A stretch of DNA of 63,515 nt. Origin: a virus. Where the stretch lies: positions 1 through 63,515 of the IMG/VR virus record IMGVR_UViG_3300029258_001393. One strand, given 5' to 3'. Both the position numbers and the translations under genes were made by a program. Under the pieces are notes generated by a model. The model was given only the letters and a program-made list of their open reading frames with translations, was not told where the DNA came from and searched no databases. Position 1 is the first letter of the stretch; each line of letters opens with the position of its first letter. Below are positions 7,971 through 20,590 of the stretch, piece by piece.

Positions 7971-8051
7971 CCCATCCCCCTTTCATGTGGTTGTCATGTG
8001 TATCAACTGTATCATAAATAGCAAAACGGGTACACGCCTATGTGAATAGTT

Positions 8052-8810
8052 TTAACTGCCTTGTTTTTCAATTAATACCGGATACTCGTCACGCTTGAAC
8101 AGTTTTAGTTGGTTTTCTCCTACTTCTACACTAAGAGAAACTCCATACTTGCTTAAATAAATGGGTCCCAAACCCTTCCTTTTGCGTTCTCTATTACAAC
8201 TATTTTCCAATATTTTTGCCTTGATAAATAATTTCGGATGGTCGTTTCTAAGGTTTCGCCAATCTGCATGGGTAGAGTTGAAACAAATATAACAAGCAGA
8301 TTTTGGAGGGATAGGGAATCCATGCCTTTTTATAATTCTTTTACATTCGGCCCTATCAATTCCAACTTCTATCAATGGGAATTTATCTTTAATCCCTTTA
8401 GAGGGTTTCCAGTTTTTAATCCTGTTTTTTTCTCCTGCATCAATGCCAATAAAATTTATACAGGGCTTTGAAAAATAATTTTCTTTTGGTTTAATCTTAA
8501 ATTTTTGTGAACAATCCCTATACATTCTTGAAGGTATGGTTTTTTTTGACAAATAAAAACTATACATTAAACCATTAAATTCTCTTTGTGCTGGGAATCC
8601 ATGTTCCATTGCATTAATAATAGTTATTGGTTGTTTGTTGTTTGTTTTTAAAAACTGATTCACTCTTTTTAAAAACTGATATGTTTCTGGTCTTTCACAT
8701 CCAGTATCGACAAAAACAGACTCAAATTTATATCCTTGATCTTTAAGGTAAAGTTGTAAAGCATAAGAATTAACCCCTCCACCATGACTAAGATATTTTT
8801 TCAATTCCAT
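8052..8810 (-). CDS. PAPS-reductase-family PP-loop ATP-pyrophosphatase (paralog 1)
   Basis: PP-loop SHGGGVNS, VFVDTGCERPETYQF, RDCSQKFKIKP, KSACYICF. No SD. In frame with the upstream MTase fragment across one TAG. Confidence 0.75.
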   Translation of the reverse strand: MELKKYLSHGGGVNSYALQLYLKDQGYKFESVFVDTGCERPETYQFLKRVNQFLKTNNKQPITIINAMEHGFPAQREFNGLMYSFYLSKKTIPSRMYRDCSQKFKIKPKENYFSKPCINFIGIDAGEKNRIKNWKPSKGIKDKFPLIEVGIDRAECKRIIKRHGFPIPPKSACYICFNSTHADWRNLRNDHPKLFIKAKILENSCNRERKRKGLGPIYLSKYGVSLSVEVGENQLKLFKRDEYPVLIEKQGS

Positions 8811-8825
8811 GTGGTTTCCATGTGG

Positions 8826-9344
8826 CTATTTGGTGGCTTTTTCCTGTAAATTTTCCACCCCATACCCAAAAATGTCATTATTATTTCTATTCGCATGAGC
8901 TTGTGTAAAGGTTGTCCCGTTTTGTTTCGCCTTTTGAACATCTCCCCTAATCTTTTGCCCAACAATCTCTCTTTCAACCCCTGCCGCCTTATCAATCGCC
9001 TTTGAAATATTATGCGATTTCGGAAATCCAGAACCATAAAGCCACATCATACAATCCCTGATTTCCCATCCTGCATCTTCAATGGCACACATTAATCTGT
9101 GGTGGGTACGGGTTCCACCAAAGGCTAAGAGAAATCCACCAGGCTTGATTATCCGAATGGCGTTTTTCCAAGTTTCAATTTGAAAAGCTACGCCGGAAGC
9201 ATCCCATTTCTTACCCATAAAGCCTAACTCATATGGTGGGTCAGTTATAATGCAAGTGAAATGATTGTCTGGAAACGATTTCATAACTTCGTTGCAATCA
9301 CCCTGATAAATTATTCCTTCTGACTGTTGGAAATACGGTCTAAT
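8826..9344 (-). CDS. N6/N4 DNA methyltransferase N-terminal half (motif IV DPPY only), probable ATT start
   Basis: IIYQGDCNEV-MKSFPDNHFTCIITDPPY...FGGTRTHHRL...GSGFPKS. No FxGxG AdoMet motif before TAG 8826-8828. The conserved IYQGDC lies upstream of the first ATG (9284). Confidence 0.65.
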   Translation of the reverse strand: MRPYFQQSEGIIYQGDCNEVMKSFPDNHFTCIITDPPYELGFMGKKWDASGVAFQIETWKNAIRIIKPGGFLLAFGGTRTHHRLMCAIEDAGWEIRDCMMWLYGSGFPKSHNISKAIDKAAGVEREIVGQKIRGDVQKAKQNGTTFTQAHANRNNNDIFGYGVENLQEKATK

Positions 9345-9552
9345 CTTTCCTCCCCCCTCCCATATGCGCCATCAATTTCCCGATCAACCATTTTAATGTT
9401 TATGAATTGTTTATTGACCCCTTTGCAGACCCTTGATATACGGGATGCAATGCGGGGGTTCAACCCGTCATTTCTTAGAACTTATCCATTAAATTTCAGT
9501 ATCTTATCTTGTTCAGATACCCCATTTTGGTTTATGAAAGGTTTATGAAGGA

Positions 9553-10203
9553 TTAATGCCATAATTTTAACTGCTTTGTTTCTTCTTCTTCTTTAAATGC
9601 AACCTCATCCATTTCTAAATATCTTTTATATAATTCTGAAAAATGCAACCTTAGTTTATCAATTCGTTTTTGACCTGCTTTGGGACAACAAAAACATGAC
9701 ACTCGACTAAAAACTTTATAAAGTCCATCCCAATCATACCCAAGAGAATAGCAATATTTTAGAGTGTCTTTTTCACTAAACCCGTATTCAATCAGCGGGA
9801 ATCTAACGGGCCATTTTCTATTAGTTATAGATGGTTGTTTTGTTCGGTGTGTCTCATCGGTTGTAAACCCGATACATTCAATCGTGCCTTTCAATGCCCT
9901 AAATATCTTTTTGCAATTATCTCTTTTTGAAGCAGCACACCATCCACCTTTTGAGTGAGGCCAACCATACCGAGCTAACAATTCACCAAAATGTCGATAG
10001 TTGCGAATCCGAATTGTTTTTATGCCAGTATTTTTTTCGACCTTCTGAATATGCGCTTCCATTTGGGGAAAATCCCATCCGGTTTCAAAATATATAACAT
10101 GGGAAATGGGTTCATTTTTTTCGATCATTAAATGAATCATGGCTGTTGAATCCTTGCCGAATGATGAACTAACAATTACACATTTTTTGCAATACGGTTT
10201 AAT
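9553..10203 (-). CDS. PAPS-reductase-family PP-loop ATP-pyrophosphatase (paralog 2), probable ATT start
   Basis: The PP-loop SFGKDS is encoded upstream of the first ATG (10140). YFETGWDFPQ, GFTTDETHR, SCFCCP. GGAGG sits 7 nt before ATT 10203. Confidence 0.75.
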   Translation of the reverse strand: MKPYCKKCVIVSSSFGKDSTAMIHLMIEKNEPISHVIYFETGWDFPQMEAHIQKVEKNTGIKTIRIRNYRHFGELLARYGWPHSKGGWCAASKRDNCKKIFRALKGTIECIGFTTDETHRTKQPSITNRKWPVRFPLIEYGFSEKDTLKYCYSLGYDWDGLYKVFSRVSCFCCPKAGQKRIDKLRLHFSELYKRYLEMDEVAFKEEEETKQLKLWH

Positions 10204-11246
10204 TCCACAACCTCCCCTGACAACTCTTTAATTTTCTCCGTAACCTTCAAAGCCCTTGCCTGCTTACCCTGAAAATACCTCTCAAACGCTGCTGAGACAT
10301 GCCCTGTTGCGTCTTTAACCTGTTCGGGGGTGCATATCCTACCCAAAGCCGTAACGGTGCTGTGGCGTGTTCCACCGTACAAATCAACCCCTTCAATGCC
10401 GAGGTTATGACAGGCACGTTTCCAGAATTTATAGAGATAACCTGGGCCGAATCTGGATCCGTTCTTTACTCCCTTACTATGGCAATGCCGAAAAAAGTAG
10501 AGATCGGGCATTGACGTAGGGAAAGTATTGAGGTGCTGTATATCTTCTTGTAAAAGGTAAATAATTTTGGGTGTTTTTTCCTTTGGATCGGGTATAAGAA
10601 TACCGCCCATCCCAAGACTAATTTGTTTTTCCCGTATGGATATAAGCTCCCCTGGACGCACAGAAACGTATGTTGAAAGAAACTTAATCCCGAGCCAAAT
10701 CTTGGGATTAATGCTATACGATATTTTCCGCACCTCACTAATAATGCTCTGTTGTGTTCCAACATCAATTATATTCCTCCATCCCAAAGTATAGGGCACT
10801 TCCGGTATATCCGGCATAGGGATTCTTTCACGCTTCGATACCCACTTAAAAAACTCTGACAGGCATATTTTGATATTGTGCCGGGTCTTGTCGGATATCC
10901 CTTCAATGCCATAAAGAAAGTCTTCAATCGTGCCAAAATTAATATCTTTGACGTTCTTCCCTTGCCATTTTCCAGCCGCCCTTGCCATGTAGTTCTTTAG
11001 GTTGCTGTAATATCGAGGTCGTACCTGTTTTTCTTTAACCTCAAGCCACTTCTTAGCCAGATTCTCAAAGCCAAGCGGATTGATTTTTTGCCAGTCTCTT
11101 GGGTCAAACGTGCCGTTGTCCGTTTGAACCCTAATGTAATTAAGAAACCTCTCAGCGTCTATTAAGTGCTTGAATGATTTGGTTAATTTACGACCAAACC
11201 GAACCTGATACCCACCCCTGTAATTTGGATATATTCGTCCTTTCAT
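10176..11246 (-). CDS. int: tyrosine recombinase (phage integrase)
   Basis: C-terminal catalytic signature LYGGTRHSTVTALG and ATGHVSAAFERYF. ATG 11246 has an AGGGGGGA SD. The longer track ORF is an unsupported extension. Confidence 0.85.
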   Translation of the reverse strand: MKGRIYPNYRGGYQVRFGRKLTKSFKHLIDAERFLNYIRVQTDNGTFDPRDWQKINPLGFENLAKKWLEVKEKQVRPRYYSNLKNYMARAAGKWQGKNVKDINFGTIEDFLYGIEGISDKTRHNIKICLSEFFKWVSKRERIPMPDIPEVPYTLGWRNIIDVGTQQSIISEVRKISYSINPKIWLGIKFLSTYVSVRPGELISIREKQISLGMGGILIPDPKEKTPKIIYLLQEDIQHLNTFPTSMPDLYFFRHCHSKGVKNGSRFGPGYLYKFWKRACHNLGIEGVDLYGGTRHSTVTALGRICTPEQVKDATGHVSAAFERYFQGKQARALKVTEKIKELSGEVVELNRIAKNV

Positions 11247-11283
11247 ACACAGATCCCCCCTTTGATTTGAGTCTAAGAGGGTA

Positions 11284-11526
11284 TCATATATCGTATTTGG
11301 GCGTGGTGTCAAATTTAGTCCTCTTCTTTTTATTTGCAAACCGACCAACCTCCCCAGTCAGCCGGCTTACAGTGCCGTCTTGCTCCCCTTTCTGTAAAAT
11401 CATCAACCCGGGCCTGTTATGGGTTAGGCGATAAGAAGGTTGATGCCCGCCTTTTCGAGGGGGCTTGGTATCAACTCGGCTTGCGATAGCGGTATCTCCG
11501 GCCATACCGTTAATTCGCAGGGTCAC
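11284..11526 (-). CDS. small basic protein upstream of int (possible directionality factor)
   Basis: GTG start overlaps the upstream stop (GTGA). Lys/Arg-rich. No recognisable HTH. Confidence 0.35.
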   Translation of the reverse strand: MTLRINGMAGDTAIASRVDTKPPRKGGHQPSYRLTHNRPGLMILQKGEQDGTVSRLTGEVGRFANKKKRTKFDTTPKYDI

Positions 11527-11708
11527 GGACGGCGCGCCCGTTGGAGGTGCGGGTTGAAAAATCGTTTATACCAAGGCTCTTTTTGCTCAAATATCGCTGT
11601 TTTATAAGCATGGAAATTTGACCGGATGGTATCAATCCGGCCTTTTTGCCTGGGTGCGAATACGGCGTTCTCTAAGGTTTCGAGCTTTGCTATTTGATCG
11701 GGGGTCAT
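11523..11708 (-). CDS. hypothetical protein (61 aa)
   Basis: AAGGAG SD. Packed between the MTase and the 11526 ORF. Confidence 0.5.
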   Translation of the reverse strand: MTPDQIAKLETLENAVFAPRQKGRIDTIRSNFHAYKTAIFEQKEPWYKRFFNPHLQRARRP

Positions 11709-11716
11709 GTTGCTCC

Positions 11717-12574
11717 TTAGTTGAATAATTTTAACTGACGTGTTTCCTTTTCAATTCTCGGTATTCCTATATCGTCAATATAAACCCTGGATAGTTCAAT
11801 CATGATAAATTTTCGACTATACTTATGCGCTACGATTGCCGTTGTCATTGCCCCGCCGAAGGGGTCAAGTACAACCTTTCCTTTTGGACATCCGGCAAGG
11901 ATAGCTACTTCTGGCAACCTCGGCGGAAATGTGGCAAAATGCGCTTCAGAAAATCCCTTCGGGTTAATGTCCAGCCCCACAAGCTCATCATCGGCAAAGA
12001 TCGCCCCGAATGGCGGTTCAAGAGATTCAAAGAATAGGTCGGTGTTGCGGAAGTTGCGGCCCAAAGGATTGTATTCACGGTGTTTATCAAGTGATACTTT
12101 TCCACCAGACCAACCTTGATTATTCTGTCTCGGTCCAATTCCATCTTTACCCTTAAAACCGTTTGGCCTGTTTAAATCTTTATGCTTTACCCGTATCGCC
12201 TCCATATCAAAATAATATTTGGCCGATTTCGTAAGCAAAAAAACATACTCCAAGGCACTCGCCGGACGGTCCGAGCAACTTTCTGGCATGGCGGATTTTT
12301 TTACCCAGGGAATTCCAGACCGCAAATACCAACCATCGGCTTGAAGCGCAAGGGCTACACGCCAGGGGATTCCGCATAGGTCTTTGGGTTTGAGGCCCAT
12401 TGGAGCCTTTCTTGATTTTCCGCTTGCCTGACCCCTATTCCTAAAATTACCGCTTTTATCAACAGTATTCTCAACCTGTGGCCCTGCTTGACTTGCATAA
12501 CTATCGCCCATATTCAACCAAAGCGTTCCATCATCCCTCAACACCCTGCGGACCTCTCGGAAGATTTCAACCAT
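11717..12574 (-). CDS. N6/N4 DNA methyltransferase, C-terminal 285-codon ORF (motif I present; catalytic motif IV lies upstream of an in-frame TAG)
   Basis: DGTLWLNMGDSY, SGIPWVKK, HFATFP, VLDPFGGAMTTA. The frame continues upstream to GTG 12940 with a single TAG at 12815-12817. Confidence 0.85.
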   Translation of the reverse strand: MVEIFREVRRVLRDDGTLWLNMGDSYASQAGPQVENTVDKSGNFRNRGQASGKSRKAPMGLKPKDLCGIPWRVALALQADGWYLRSGIPWVKKSAMPESCSDRPASALEYVFLLTKSAKYYFDMEAIRVKHKDLNRPNGFKGKDGIGPRQNNQGWSGGKVSLDKHREYNPLGRNFRNTDLFFESLEPPFGAIFADDELVGLDINPKGFSEAHFATFPPRLPEVAILAGCPKGKVVLDPFGGAMTTAIVAHKYSRKFIMIELSRVYIDDIGIPRIEKETRQLKLFN

Positions 12575-12814
12575 GTGTTTAATAAATAATTCCGGTGTGG
12601 GTTCGAGTCCGAGACAACCACGCCATGCTCCGCAGAGTTGGCAGAATTGGGTTTTAACAAGTTCGCAATTTACTCCTTTGTTTGTTGCCTGCTTACTATT
12701 TTTGTTTTTTACATCATCGGGGTGCCGTTGCCGCCTTGGATCACATTCCCCCCAAACATGCTGACAATCTGAATCACCATCCCAAATTGTCGGCGGTAGG
12801 CCATAATCTCTCAG

Positions 12815-12940
12815 CTAAAGGCCCCAGTAGGGTGGGCTTGTGATTACACAATGCACACTCTCTGAGGCCATCTCCTTCAGCACGTCTAAAACATGCCCTT
12901 GATAAATCTTATTTCCGTCTTGTTGCCAGTATGTTTTCAC
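12815..12940 (-). CDS. N-terminal 41 codons of the same methyltransferase (contains SPPY), ending at the in-frame TAG
   Basis: GTG 12940 with an AGAGG SD. Translation is KTYWQQDGNKIYQGHVLDVLKEMASESVHCVITSPPYWGL-TAG. Confidence 0.6.
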   Translation of the reverse strand: MKTYWQQDGNKIYQGHVLDVLKEMASESVHCVITSPPYWGL

Positions 12941-12969: not shown

Positions 12970-13353
12970 TTAAAGCGATAATGCCATTTGCTTCTCATTA
13001 ACGATTACCGGGTCTGTCTTAACCTTCGTTTGTGGCAACGGATAATATGATAACTCGGTTATGACACCGACGACCTCTAAATTTCCACTTAGGTTAACCT
13101 TGACCGATATCCCAAGTTTGCAATCACTGTTTTCGTAGGCCCGAACAATTCTCTCCCAATCGGTTTCAATAATGTTGCTTACTTCCGCTACTACCATGTT
13201 TTTAGTTTTATCCATTGACATGCTCCTTAGATTTTTGTTTGCACATTCAAGGCAAATTCCATATTCTCCACCCTTAGCCTTGCAAGCACCCGGCTTCCCG
13301 CATTGCTTACATTTCACATCTTGGTTGATTGTCATATTATAGACTTTTCCCAT
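12970..13353 (-). CDS. Zn-ribbon protein (127 aa)
   Basis: CKQCGKPGAC...CLEC four-Cys motif at the N-terminus. Confidence 0.55.
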   Translation of the reverse strand: MGKVYNMTINQDVKCKQCGKPGACKAKGGEYGICLECANKNLRSMSMDKTKNMVVAEVSNIIETDWERIVRAYENSDCKLGISVKVNLSGNLEVVGVITELSYYPLPQTKVKTDPVIVNEKQMALSL

Positions 13354-13365
13354 GATCGTCCTTTC

Positions 13366-14115
13366 TTACTGGCTCTTGGTGTTAGGAGACTCTCTTGCTA
13401 TCCAATTTGTTTTGGTTTTGTCGAAAAACGGCACCCCCGACTCTTGGCATTGCTCGTATAAATCTCTTATCCATTCGGGCTTGCATTCTCGTTTGCCGGG
13501 TCCAGTTTCGGGACCGACGATTACCCAGTCAAGGCCAACGCCAGGAGCACCCCAAAAATCATCAAGATCGACAGGTTCAAGCATCGGTTCAATACTTACA
13601 AACCGGACAGCGGCTGGAATTTGAAGCAAGGTAGGTATGCGCTCATCGGCACGTTTTTGATTTTCTGCGGTTACGCCGAGCCATATATTTGTCCATCTTG
13701 CAAAGTGTTCTGGGTGCGGAGAATTTGCAATTCGTTCGGGCCGCTTGGTGAGCAATAAATAAGTGTGTGGTTGTTTATTGAACAGCGCAGAAATTGGATA
13801 AAAGGCATCGTAAGCTATATTTGCAAAGATGCTATCAAGTTGTTTGTCGGTTACATTTTCGTGGAATAGATCCCCCATGGAACTAACAAAAATTTTCTTC
13901 GGTGTCTTTGGCAACTTATCAAACACGCTCATATCCACACCGATTTTCCCGGTCCATCCGTTCTTATCAACAACATCCTGATATTTCGGAACTCCCATAC
14001 ACTTCAACCGCCATGCCATTTTTTCGGCATAGCAGTTTTGACACCCGTCACTGATTTTTGAGCACCCCACAATCGGGTTTATGGTTTCGTCGCACCATTC
14101 TATTTTGGTTGGCAT
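13366..14115 (-). CDS. phage Gp37/Gp68 (DUF5131) family protein
   Basis: Characteristic N-terminus MPTKIEWCDETINPIVGCSKISDGCQNCYAEKMA, then LLTKRP and VSIEPMLEP. Confidence 0.8.
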   Translation of the reverse strand: MPTKIEWCDETINPIVGCSKISDGCQNCYAEKMAWRLKCMGVPKYQDVVDKNGWTGKIGVDMSVFDKLPKTPKKIFVSSMGDLFHENVTDKQLDSIFANIAYDAFYPISALFNKQPHTYLLLTKRPERIANSPHPEHFARWTNIWLGVTAENQKRADERIPTLLQIPAAVRFVSIEPMLEPVDLDDFWGAPGVGLDWVIVGPETGPGKRECKPEWIRDLYEQCQESGVPFFDKTKTNWIARESPNTKSQ

Positions 14116-19879: not shown

Positions 19880-20590
19880 ATGGCGAACCCGCAACCGGAT
19901 AAATTTACAAAATGGAGCAATGAATTGTTAGAGGCGATTATCCAATATCCATTTACAGCCAATGAATATGCCGTGATGTTATTTATTGGTAGAAATACTT
20001 ATGGTTATGGGGAAAAGACCATCAACTTGAGGGTGTCGAAAATAGCAGAGGGTTCAAATATATCAAAAAAGGTTATAAGTCGGGTGCTTAGATCGCTTTT
20101 ATCATCAAGTTGTATACTCTACCATCAAGTTGAGGGTAAAACAGGCGTAACTATTGGAATACAAAAAGATTATGATAAGTGGAAGCAAAGAAAGAAAGAA
20201 AAGAAAAACACCATCAAGTTGAGGGTAAAACACCATCAAGTTGAGGGTAAAACGAAAATTATACCTTCTAGTATAAAAGAAAAAAGAAATAAAACTAATA
20301 AGGGGGGTAATAATTCAGACCTCCCAAAATTAGAAGATTTAAAATCCAAATTTCCATGGCTCGACATTTCAAGTTGGAGTGAATTTCGGGATCATCGTCT
20401 TAATCTTTTCAAGAAAACCAAGCGACATCCATTCAACTCTCTCGCAGAAACCAAAGCGCTAAACAAATTAAAATCGTTTATCGATCTTGGATATAAACAA
20501 TCTGAGATTTTAGATCCGTCAATTATTTCCGGGTGGGCGGGTATATTCAAACCCAAAGAAGAACCAAAACGAGAACTGGGGGATTTCTAA
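19880..20590 (+). CDS. replication initiator, lambda O-like N-terminal domain
   Basis: FTKWSNELLEAIIQYPFTANEYAVMLFIGRNTYGYGEK fits the replication protein O N-terminus. Iterons lie inside the gene. Confidence 0.75.
   Translation: MANPQPDKFTKWSNELLEAIIQYPFTANEYAVMLFIGRNTYGYGEKTINLRVSKIAEGSNISKKVISRVLRSLLSSSCILYHQVEGKTGVTIGIQKDYDKWKQRKKEKKNTIKLRVKHHQVEGKTKIIPSSIKEKRNKTNKGGNNSDLPKLEDLKSKFPWLDISSWSEFRDHRLNLFKKTKRHPFNSLAETKALNKLKSFIDLGYKQSEILDPSIISGWAGIFKPKEEPKRELGDF
20018..20305. other. origin of replication: iterons plus an AT-rich tract inside the initiator gene
   Basis: ACCATCAA(C/G)TTGAGGGT at 20018 and 20121, a 22-bp tandem pair at 20209-20252, a degenerate copy at 20101, then an A/T-rich stretch at 20255-20305. 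Confidence 0.7.

Follow-up and report, generated by a model that had tools for sequence, protein, structure and literature searches.

The best described ligands of the bacterial beta sliding clamp, DnaN, bind through short linear peptides of the form Q-phi-x-[L/M]-[F/L] or Q-phi-x-[L/M]-x-[F/L], of which QLxLF shows the highest affinity; binding is favoured where the motif is followed by an acidic residue or by the free carboxylate of the C-terminus (PMC11139829). The consensus has been given as QL[S/D]LF (Dalrymple 2001; PMC11139829), and the known ligands include the polymerases Pol II (QLGLF), Pol V (QLNLF), Pol IV (QLVLGL), and Pol III alpha (QADMF), as well as Hda (QLSLPL) (PMC11139829). 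Similar peptides are encoded by the IMG/VR virus record IMGVR_UViG_3300029258_001393, a contig of a lambda-like phage whose 63,515 nucleotides (~63.5-kb) were analysed over their full length (hereafter, the window). Here QLKL[F/W] lies at or close to the C-terminal end of three proteins, namely a beta-class N6/N4 DNA methyltransferase, MT1, and two distinct PP-loop/PAPS-reductase-like enzymes, PAPS1 and PAPS2, and a neighbouring zinc-ribbon protein ends in QMALSL. We consider it somewhat better than an even prospect that these peptides serve phage DNA-acting proteins as short linear motifs for beta-clamp binding, at or close to the C-terminus; a clamp-binding tail is the most likely reading for MT1, PAPS2, and the zinc-ribbon protein, and confidence is lower for the internal copy of PAPS1.

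The use of a host clamp by mobile elements is not without precedent. The MuC and Mor activators of phage Mu bind host DnaN through an N-terminal QHDLF, with a family consensus of Qx[D/E][L/M]F (bioRxiv 10.1101/2025.01.04.631326; PNAS PMC12867686). As proposed here, proteins of a temperate phage without a clamp of its own use that of the host, and in both cases the motif is inferred from a family consensus that tolerates variation at position 2. In contrast to the C-terminal motifs described here, which are predicted on DNA-modifying enzymes, the Mu motif is N-terminal, belongs to a transcription factor, and has been validated by two-hybrid assays and phage genetics. Tn7 TnsE, insertion sequence (IS) transposases, and RK2 TrfA are further clamp binders of mobile elements (PMC4549789) that exploit the host clamp via short motifs, however in these systems the clamp serves target choice or replication initiation rather than DNA modification. 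Unlike the canonical ligands, the candidate clamp binders in the window are a methyltransferase, PP-loop enzymes, and a zinc-ribbon protein. No such carriers appear on the ligand list of a 2024 review, in which methylation is never mentioned (PMC11139829), and in the literature searched we found no paper that connects the beta clamp with DNA methyltransferases of bacteria or phages, or with PAPS-reductase-like enzymes.

Six-frame translation of the window yields four copies of QLKL[FW], all between positions 8044 and 11737 (3.7 kb), whereas 200 mononucleotide shuffles average 0.085 copies and never exceed one. The occurrence of QLKL[F/W] is non-random, and far beyond chance. Three of the four copies stand one residue from a stop codon. 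The original prediction had placed the peptide in MT1, PAPS2, and PAPS1, where all three copies are present on the minus strand (Table 1), and had noted it in no other protein of the window. This holds for QLKL[F/W] itself, with the fourth copy being out of frame, but not for the motif in its wider sense, as a looser scan with the published motif forms returns one further real open reading frame (ORF), that of the zinc-ribbon protein with its hexameric tail. As a rough background, the strict motif ends 9 of 2391 ORFs of unrelated loci, and 4 of these 9 are methyltransferase or PAPS homologues. The proposed match to the beta-clamp-binding motif is likewise upheld, with QLKLF of MT1 and PAPS1, and QMALSL of the zinc-ribbon protein, fitting the published forms, whereas PAPS2 departs from them by a W in place of F/L at position 5.

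The motif is retained in relatives of all three enzymes, if sporadically for PAPS2. Lack of conservation, which would have counted as a refutation of the original prediction, is not what the homologues show. Among the 120 best relatives of MT1, which are 41-67% identical, 68 carry Q-x-x-[LIM]-[FW] within the last six residues, mostly as a terminal IPRIEKETxQLKLF(N), and, per position, the strict motif is ~1100 times more frequent over the last eight residues of the methyltransferase relatives than over the remainder of their sequences. In an AlphaFold2 (AF2) model of MT1, derived from 82 aligned sequences, the last helix (residues 343-358) is followed by the coil LKLFN, with a predicted local distance difference test (pLDDT) score of 62 for the final 5 residues versus 91 for the preceding block, which is consistent with a free terminal peptide.

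Most close relatives of PAPS2 lack the tail, with a stop soon after YLEMDEIAN, and the tail of PAPS2 reaches beyond the end of most homologues. The nearest homologue, P0084 (81% identity), ends in PRIEQETQQLKLFT, with other homologues ending in QMKLFA, QLSLFPNFKEAV, and QADLFPKFEKAI, and a more distant subgroup carrying ED.Q..[LM]F. Among these relatives the motif (terminal QLKLFT and QMKLFA, and QLSLFP and QADLFP) is sporadic, and the tails that carry it are otherwise unrelated. The P0084 tail, IAKPRIEQETQQLKLFT, almost matches the methyltransferase tail IAIPRIEKETKQLKLF, and it is because of this near identity between non-homologous enzymes that the tail may be regarded as a portable, autonomous module.

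The zinc-ribbon protein has no match in Pfam, PHROG, or NCBIfam. Among 32 representative homologues, selected at no more than 50% mutual identity, most end in [DN]E.Q..[LIM]F or in a tail of the Q.SLPL type. Both forms of the clamp-type motif are found within this one family, which interchanges the terminal pentamers QKQLFD, QIGLFE, QMGLFDK, and QRELF with the hexamers QISLPL, QIGLPL, QLVLPL, and QLSMPL. By its sequence, the zinc-ribbon protein is a fourth, unrelated neighbouring family with a tail resembling the clamp motif. Many of its homologues lack the zinc ribbon and are only ~85 amino acids (aa) long.

PAPS1, with the PP-loop SHGGGVNS, displays the features of the PAPS-reductase/PP-loop superfamily, and its AF2 model (mean pLDDT 95) is best matched in the PDB by LarE, GMP synthetase, PAPS reductase, and TtuA. 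Its only sequence match in the PDB is a weak one to a chain named 'PptA' (21fy, E = 0.002), on which nothing relevant was found in the literature, and NCBIfam, Pfam, and PHROGs provide no specific family name for either PAPS1 or PAPS2. Within the PAPS1 family, the motif columns are occupied by Q in 60/78, by L/I/M in 68/78, and by F in 54/78 sequences, with positions 2 and 3 variable, an acidic residue before the motif (E-x-Q-x-x-[LIM]-F), and a terminal DEYPPCxCGL after it. The two cysteines of the latter, Cys246 and Cys248, are present in 70/78 and 69/78 sequences respectively, and are replaced by L and E in PAPS1 of the window. This C-terminal PPCxCGL pair, found in ~90% of the family, is lost in PAPS1 (window 8052-8075) and in its relatives P0010 and P0017.

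Conservation of Q1 and of positions 4 and 5, with variable positions 2-3 and flanks, is therefore seen in the methyltransferase, PAPS1, and zinc-ribbon families, and sporadically among PAPS2 relatives. Conserved Q1/L4/F5, tolerance at positions 2-3, exchange of pentamer and hexamer, and sporadic occurrence in variable tails are together the signature of beta-clamp ligands (PMC11139829). The canonical ligands share the same pentamer/hexamer pattern, the terminal placement, and the free carboxylate right after the motif; the QxSLPL and QLVLPL tails of the zinc-ribbon family resemble QLSLPL of Hda and QLVLGL of Pol IV, and, among PAPS2 relatives, QLSLF is canonical and QADLF compares with QADMF of Pol III alpha.

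Methyltransferases of cultured phages carry related peptides, with AAQLDLLHD in Pseudomonas aeruginosa LESphi3, a terminal PQAELFGSVA in Bordetella PHB04, and the end PQQLVL in cyanophage P-HM1; the motif is absent from the methyltransferases of one mycobacteriophage and one uncultured podovirus. Pseudomonas prophage methyltransferases (genomes L058, L065, L079, L084, L086, L092, and L099) have a common, conserved WLDGAAQMDVF(R/H)D ~10 residues from the C-terminus, and LESphi3 (L012) has QLDLL at the same site, making Pseudomonas/LESphi3 a culturable test system. Tails of this type also occur in neighbours of prophage methyltransferases, namely a Bacteroides SNF2/ResIII helicase of 936 aa (L053, 3934-6744; end SQLLLFA) and a Sphingomonas GapR-like DNA-binding protein of 79 aa (L098, 1074-1313; end AQLGLF). 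In a related element (L100, 1-8964), a QLKLF-ended methyltransferase again lies directly 5' of a tyrosine integrase, and host-like genes (OmpW, response regulator) ~8 kb away suggest a small integrated element or a prophage edge. The QLKLF tail marks a large, mostly uncultivated methyltransferase subfamily, with looser [LM]F tails being more widespread.

The motif-bearing genes form a single minus-strand cluster (Table 1). Its first gene encodes the DUF5131 protein, whose match to 'radical SAM mobile pair protein A' in NCBIfam falls below the threshold (63 bits versus a cut-off of 355) and which lacks a clamp-type tail. Elsewhere, the phage has genes for a Cro/CI-like helix-turn-helix protein, a terminase, and structural proteins, as well as for recombination and exonuclease functions, and a search of cultured phages at the DNA level revealed no close relatives. 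The ORFs searched, which are a subset of all ORFs, yielded neither a DNA polymerase nor a clamp, and replication presumably proceeds via the host replisome, with host DNA polymerase III (Pol III) and DnaN. Host DnaN is a plausible partner because the phage has a lambda-O-like initiator and no identified polymerase or clamp.

Table 1. Genes of the cluster, the motif copies within them, and the replication initiator of the phage, listed in the direction of transcription of the cluster.
Feature	Position in window	Strand	Remarks
DUF5131 protein	13366-14115	minus	First gene of cluster in transcription direction
Zinc-ribbon ORF, 127 aa	12970-13353	minus	Second in cluster, next to MT1
QMALSL of zinc-ribbon protein	12973-12990 (motif)	minus	Hexameric form; end NEKQMALSL
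MT1, beta-class N6/N4 DNA methyltransferase	11717-12940	minus	Pfam N6_N4_Mtase 2.6e-37, residues 29-390
QLKLF of MT1	11723-11737	minus	One residue before stop; end IEKETRQLKLFN
61-aa ORF	Between MT1 and integrase in cluster order	minus	
Tyrosine integrase	10176-11348	minus	phrog_1 1.3e-19; between MT1 and PAPS2
PAPS2, PP-loop/PAPS-reductase-like enzyme	9553-10140 from first ATG; frame open from 10228	minus	
QLKLW of PAPS2	9559-9573	minus	One residue before stop; end EEETKQLKLWH
MT2', N-terminal third of second N6/N4 methyltransferase	8826-9284	minus	Pfam N6_N4_Mtase
PAPS1, second, distinct PP-loop/PAPS-reductase-like enzyme	8052-8810	minus	Pfam PAPS_reduct 1.8e-05; phrog_424 1e-36
QLKLF of PAPS1, internal	8097-8111	minus	GENQLKLFKRD, 14 residues before stop
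KTRQLKLFT and stop, fourth copy, out of frame	8038-8067	minus	-1 frame, overlaps PAPS1 stop
Lambda-O-like replication initiator	19880-20590	plus	Pfam Phage_rep_O 2e-14; phrog_678 4.4e-23

Several observations weigh against clamp binding. The canonical Q..[LIMV][FLW] is rare in more distant methyltransferases of bacteria and prophages: in a survey of bacterial and archaeal genomes (best 80 matches, 38-46% identity), it is present in only 13 of the 74 complete bacterial tails scored, amongst them the conserved AQMDVF of Pseudomonas prophages and the terminal VQTNLF and VQQKLF of Paenibacillus, and many of the 74 end in DAPLL, DAGMF, or DAPLF instead. The motif of MT1 begins right at the end of the helix in the AF2 model, leaving little linker, and the QLKLW of PAPS2 carries a substitution, F to W, that weakens clamp binding in Pol III alpha (PMC11139829). 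The genes of MT1, PAPS2, and PAPS1 also look damaged, as described below. In the PAPS1 family position 2 is often non-aliphatic (G, R, Y), and the internal QLKLF of PAPS1 is modelled as coil in a block (residues 231-240, mean pLDDT ~88) that is apparently docked on the fold. For this copy a structural function deserves serious consideration, perhaps as an anchor for the arm that bears the CxC in relatives.

These features of PAPS1 lend themselves to a reading in which the peptide docks onto something other than DnaN, either a phage-encoded scaffold of a modification complex or, within the PAPS1 family, the fold itself, with the motif as an intramolecular anchor that places the CxC arm over the active site. 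The confidently modelled copy stands directly before the near-invariant PPCxCGL, and all carriers are neighbours in one cluster. However, the same tail is also found on methyltransferases whose gene neighbourhoods are unrelated and contain neither PAPS nor zinc-ribbon genes, the tail of MT1 is undocked in our model, and the pentamer/hexamer alternation, together with QLSLF, QADLF, and QISLPL, specifically matches beta-clamp ligands. We regard a partner other than DnaN as unlikely.

A degradation or turnover tag, by which a host AAA+ protease would limit the lifetime of the DNA-modifying enzymes, is suggested by the extreme C-terminal position and hydrophobic last residues of the peptide in three of the proteins, a general resemblance for which no specific evidence was found. 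In many homologues the motif stands 5-15 residues before the end or, in the PAPS1 family for instance, inside the protein, and neither a conserved Q1 nor an alternation of pentamer and hexamer is a known feature of C-terminal degrons, leaving this explanation very improbable.

The peptide could also be a by-product of a DNA or RNA element at the 3' ends of the cassettes (a recombination or att site, terminator, or promoter), or a remnant, without selected function, of gene ends having recently recombined. In a direct-repeat search, the three terminal copies rank first among the repeat families of the region (28 nucleotides, 75-82% identity), the integrase gene lies between two of the copies, the fourth copy lies out of frame, and the cluster has boundaries like those of cassettes. 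Against this, an identity of 75-82% over 28 nucleotides is expected from a shared 9-residue peptide, and the peptide is conserved in methyltransferase relatives that are themselves only 41-67% identical. The internal copy of PAPS1 is encoded by CAA CTA AAA CTG TTC, which differs from the terminal copies, and the codons of the motif vary synonymously across loci, including homologues on other contigs (CAG/CAA, TTA/CTA/CTT/CTG, and TTC/TTT). As the same peptide is encoded by differing synonymous codons, selection acts on the peptide, and an att site or DNA repeat is rejected as its explanation on account of this variation. We regard this reading as very improbable.

Whilst clamp-type tails on these enzyme families are thus a comparatively firm claim, modification of the DNA of this particular phage during its synthesis is a weaker one. 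The original prediction is confirmed and extended as an observation and supported in part as an interpretation, and its proposal that phage DNA is modified as it is made is doubtful given the stop within MT1, the truncation of MT2', the lack of a canonical start in PAPS2, and the loss of the cysteines of PAPS1. MT1 has the SPPY of motif IV near the N-terminus and the DPFGG of motif I near the C-terminus, however both lie in a frame that is split, rather than in an intact polypeptide, by an in-frame TAG (12815-12817) directly after SPPYWGL, inside motif IV. The TAG is part of a 6-nucleotide insertion, CTT TAG (12812-12817), relative to 119 homologues, such that SPPYWG-LRDY of the homologues corresponds to SPPYWG-L-stop-LRDY in MT1. 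Recoding of the TAG is ruled out, as the codon arrived by insertion and is not a substituted sense codon; TAG is a normal stop in this phage, ending 11 of 77 ORFs, and no tRNA gene is present in the window.

The damage is not confined to MT1. Pfam PAPS_reduct matches PAPS2 (3.8e-10) at profile positions 15-174 only, and the PP-loop SSSFGKDS of PAPS2 is encoded upstream of the first ATG, in the same open frame, in which there is no canonical start codon upstream of 10140; homologues of PAPS2 begin M..IIxSSSFGKDS. The integrase stop abuts the sequence encoding the PP-loop, and a canonical slippery heptamer, A_AAA_AAT (10188-10182), two codons before that stop, leads into the PAPS2 frame, with the RNA 3' of the heptamer folding no better than shuffled sequences (z = +1.2) when a stimulatory structure was sought. 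MT2' comprises 152 aa versus 409 aa for its nearest phage homologue, from Bacillus phage BSP18, and retains only the DPPY of motif IV (profile positions 3-90 of 221), without motif I and without a tail; the absence of a clamp motif in MT2' is due to its truncation, which leaves ~150 N-terminal residues. The same interrupted gene calls, the MT1 insertion with its TAG, and the out-of-frame PAPS1 end recur in assemblies of other samples that are 99.9-100% identical to the window. Sequencing error is thereby ruled out for both the TAG and the out-of-frame copy, and the gene interruptions are real. The cluster appears partly decayed in this phage, with the motifs possibly outliving the enzyme activities.

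The out-of-frame copy and MT2' may share a history. KTRQLKLFT would be joined to PAPS1 (as YPVLIEK-TRQLKLFT) only if ribosomes shifted by -1 in an A5 run just upstream, and it is identical in the independent assemblies L016 and L017. The related contig L006 lacks it, although the downstream sequence is otherwise almost the same. No canonical slippery heptamer is found at the PAPS1 end, where there is an A5 run only, and the copy is more likely a relic of a terminal tail than the product of a programmed -1 frameshift. MT2' stops at a TAG, with PAPS1 in the same frame five codons downstream, and a PAPS1 cassette could have replaced the middle of an older methyltransferase gene, of which MT2' and the out-of-frame KTRQLKLFT would be the two ends. 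A conserved intergenic sequence containing GATACACATGGAAACCACATG occurs in the window (7981-8026 and 8805-8824) and in L006 (103-148 and 823-948). This GATACACATGGAAACCACATG element flanks the PAPS1-type gene on both sides in L006, recurs in the window, and looks like a cassette boundary.

On the basis of the observed motif match, its non-random occurrence, its conservation at the level of the peptide, the terminal position of the MT1 tail, and the failure to identify a phage polymerase or clamp among the ORFs searched, we infer binding to DnaN and a functional consequence for the phage. Replication of the phage by the host Pol III replisome would leave host DnaN rings on new phage DNA, offering the hydrophobic pocket, between domains II and III of DnaN, in which QLxLF peptides normally bind. 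Docking of the tails in this pocket would concentrate the methyltransferase, the two PP-loop enzymes, and the zinc-ribbon protein on nascent DNA, and modification would thereby be coupled to replication. The tail itself would act as a portable module of ~10-14 residues (IEKETxQLKLF), grafted onto non-homologous enzymes.

Such an arrangement would be the bacterial counterpart of DNMT1-PCNA. In eukaryotes, DNMT1 binds PCNA via a PCNA-interacting peptide (PIP) box, which is the basis of replication-coupled maintenance methylation. The concept of a methyltransferase held on a sliding clamp, with nascent DNA methylated, is common to both, however eukaryotes use another clamp and another motif, Qxx[LIVM]xx[FY][FY], and the likeness is one of functional analogy only, without homology; none of the tails in the window has the two aromatic residues at positions 7-8 that define a PIP box. 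More tentatively, and with odds that we would put clearly below even, a recombination-shuffled IEKETxQLKLF cassette may place a set of temperate-phage enzymes (an N6/N4 methyltransferase, two kinds of PP-loop enzyme, and a small zinc-ribbon protein) on the beta clamp of the host. Methylation of nascent phage DNA, and perhaps other modification, would then take place at the fork, ahead of host restriction. This would constitute a convergent prokaryotic equivalent of DNMT1-PCNA in a large, mostly uncultivated methyltransferase lineage.

If clamp binding is confirmed, DNA methyltransferases and PAPS-reductase-like enzymes of phages and prophages would be new clients of the sliding clamp, with the hypothesis spanning a large methyltransferase subfamily. 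The protection of rapidly replicating genomes against restriction by orphan phage methyltransferases would thereby be explained, and the tails would offer additional natural ligands of the clamp pocket, of relevance to clamp-targeting antibiotics. Furthermore, the replication fork would provide a first functional handle on the PAPS-reductase-like families of phages, which are widespread yet uncharacterised, and on the small zinc-ribbon family.

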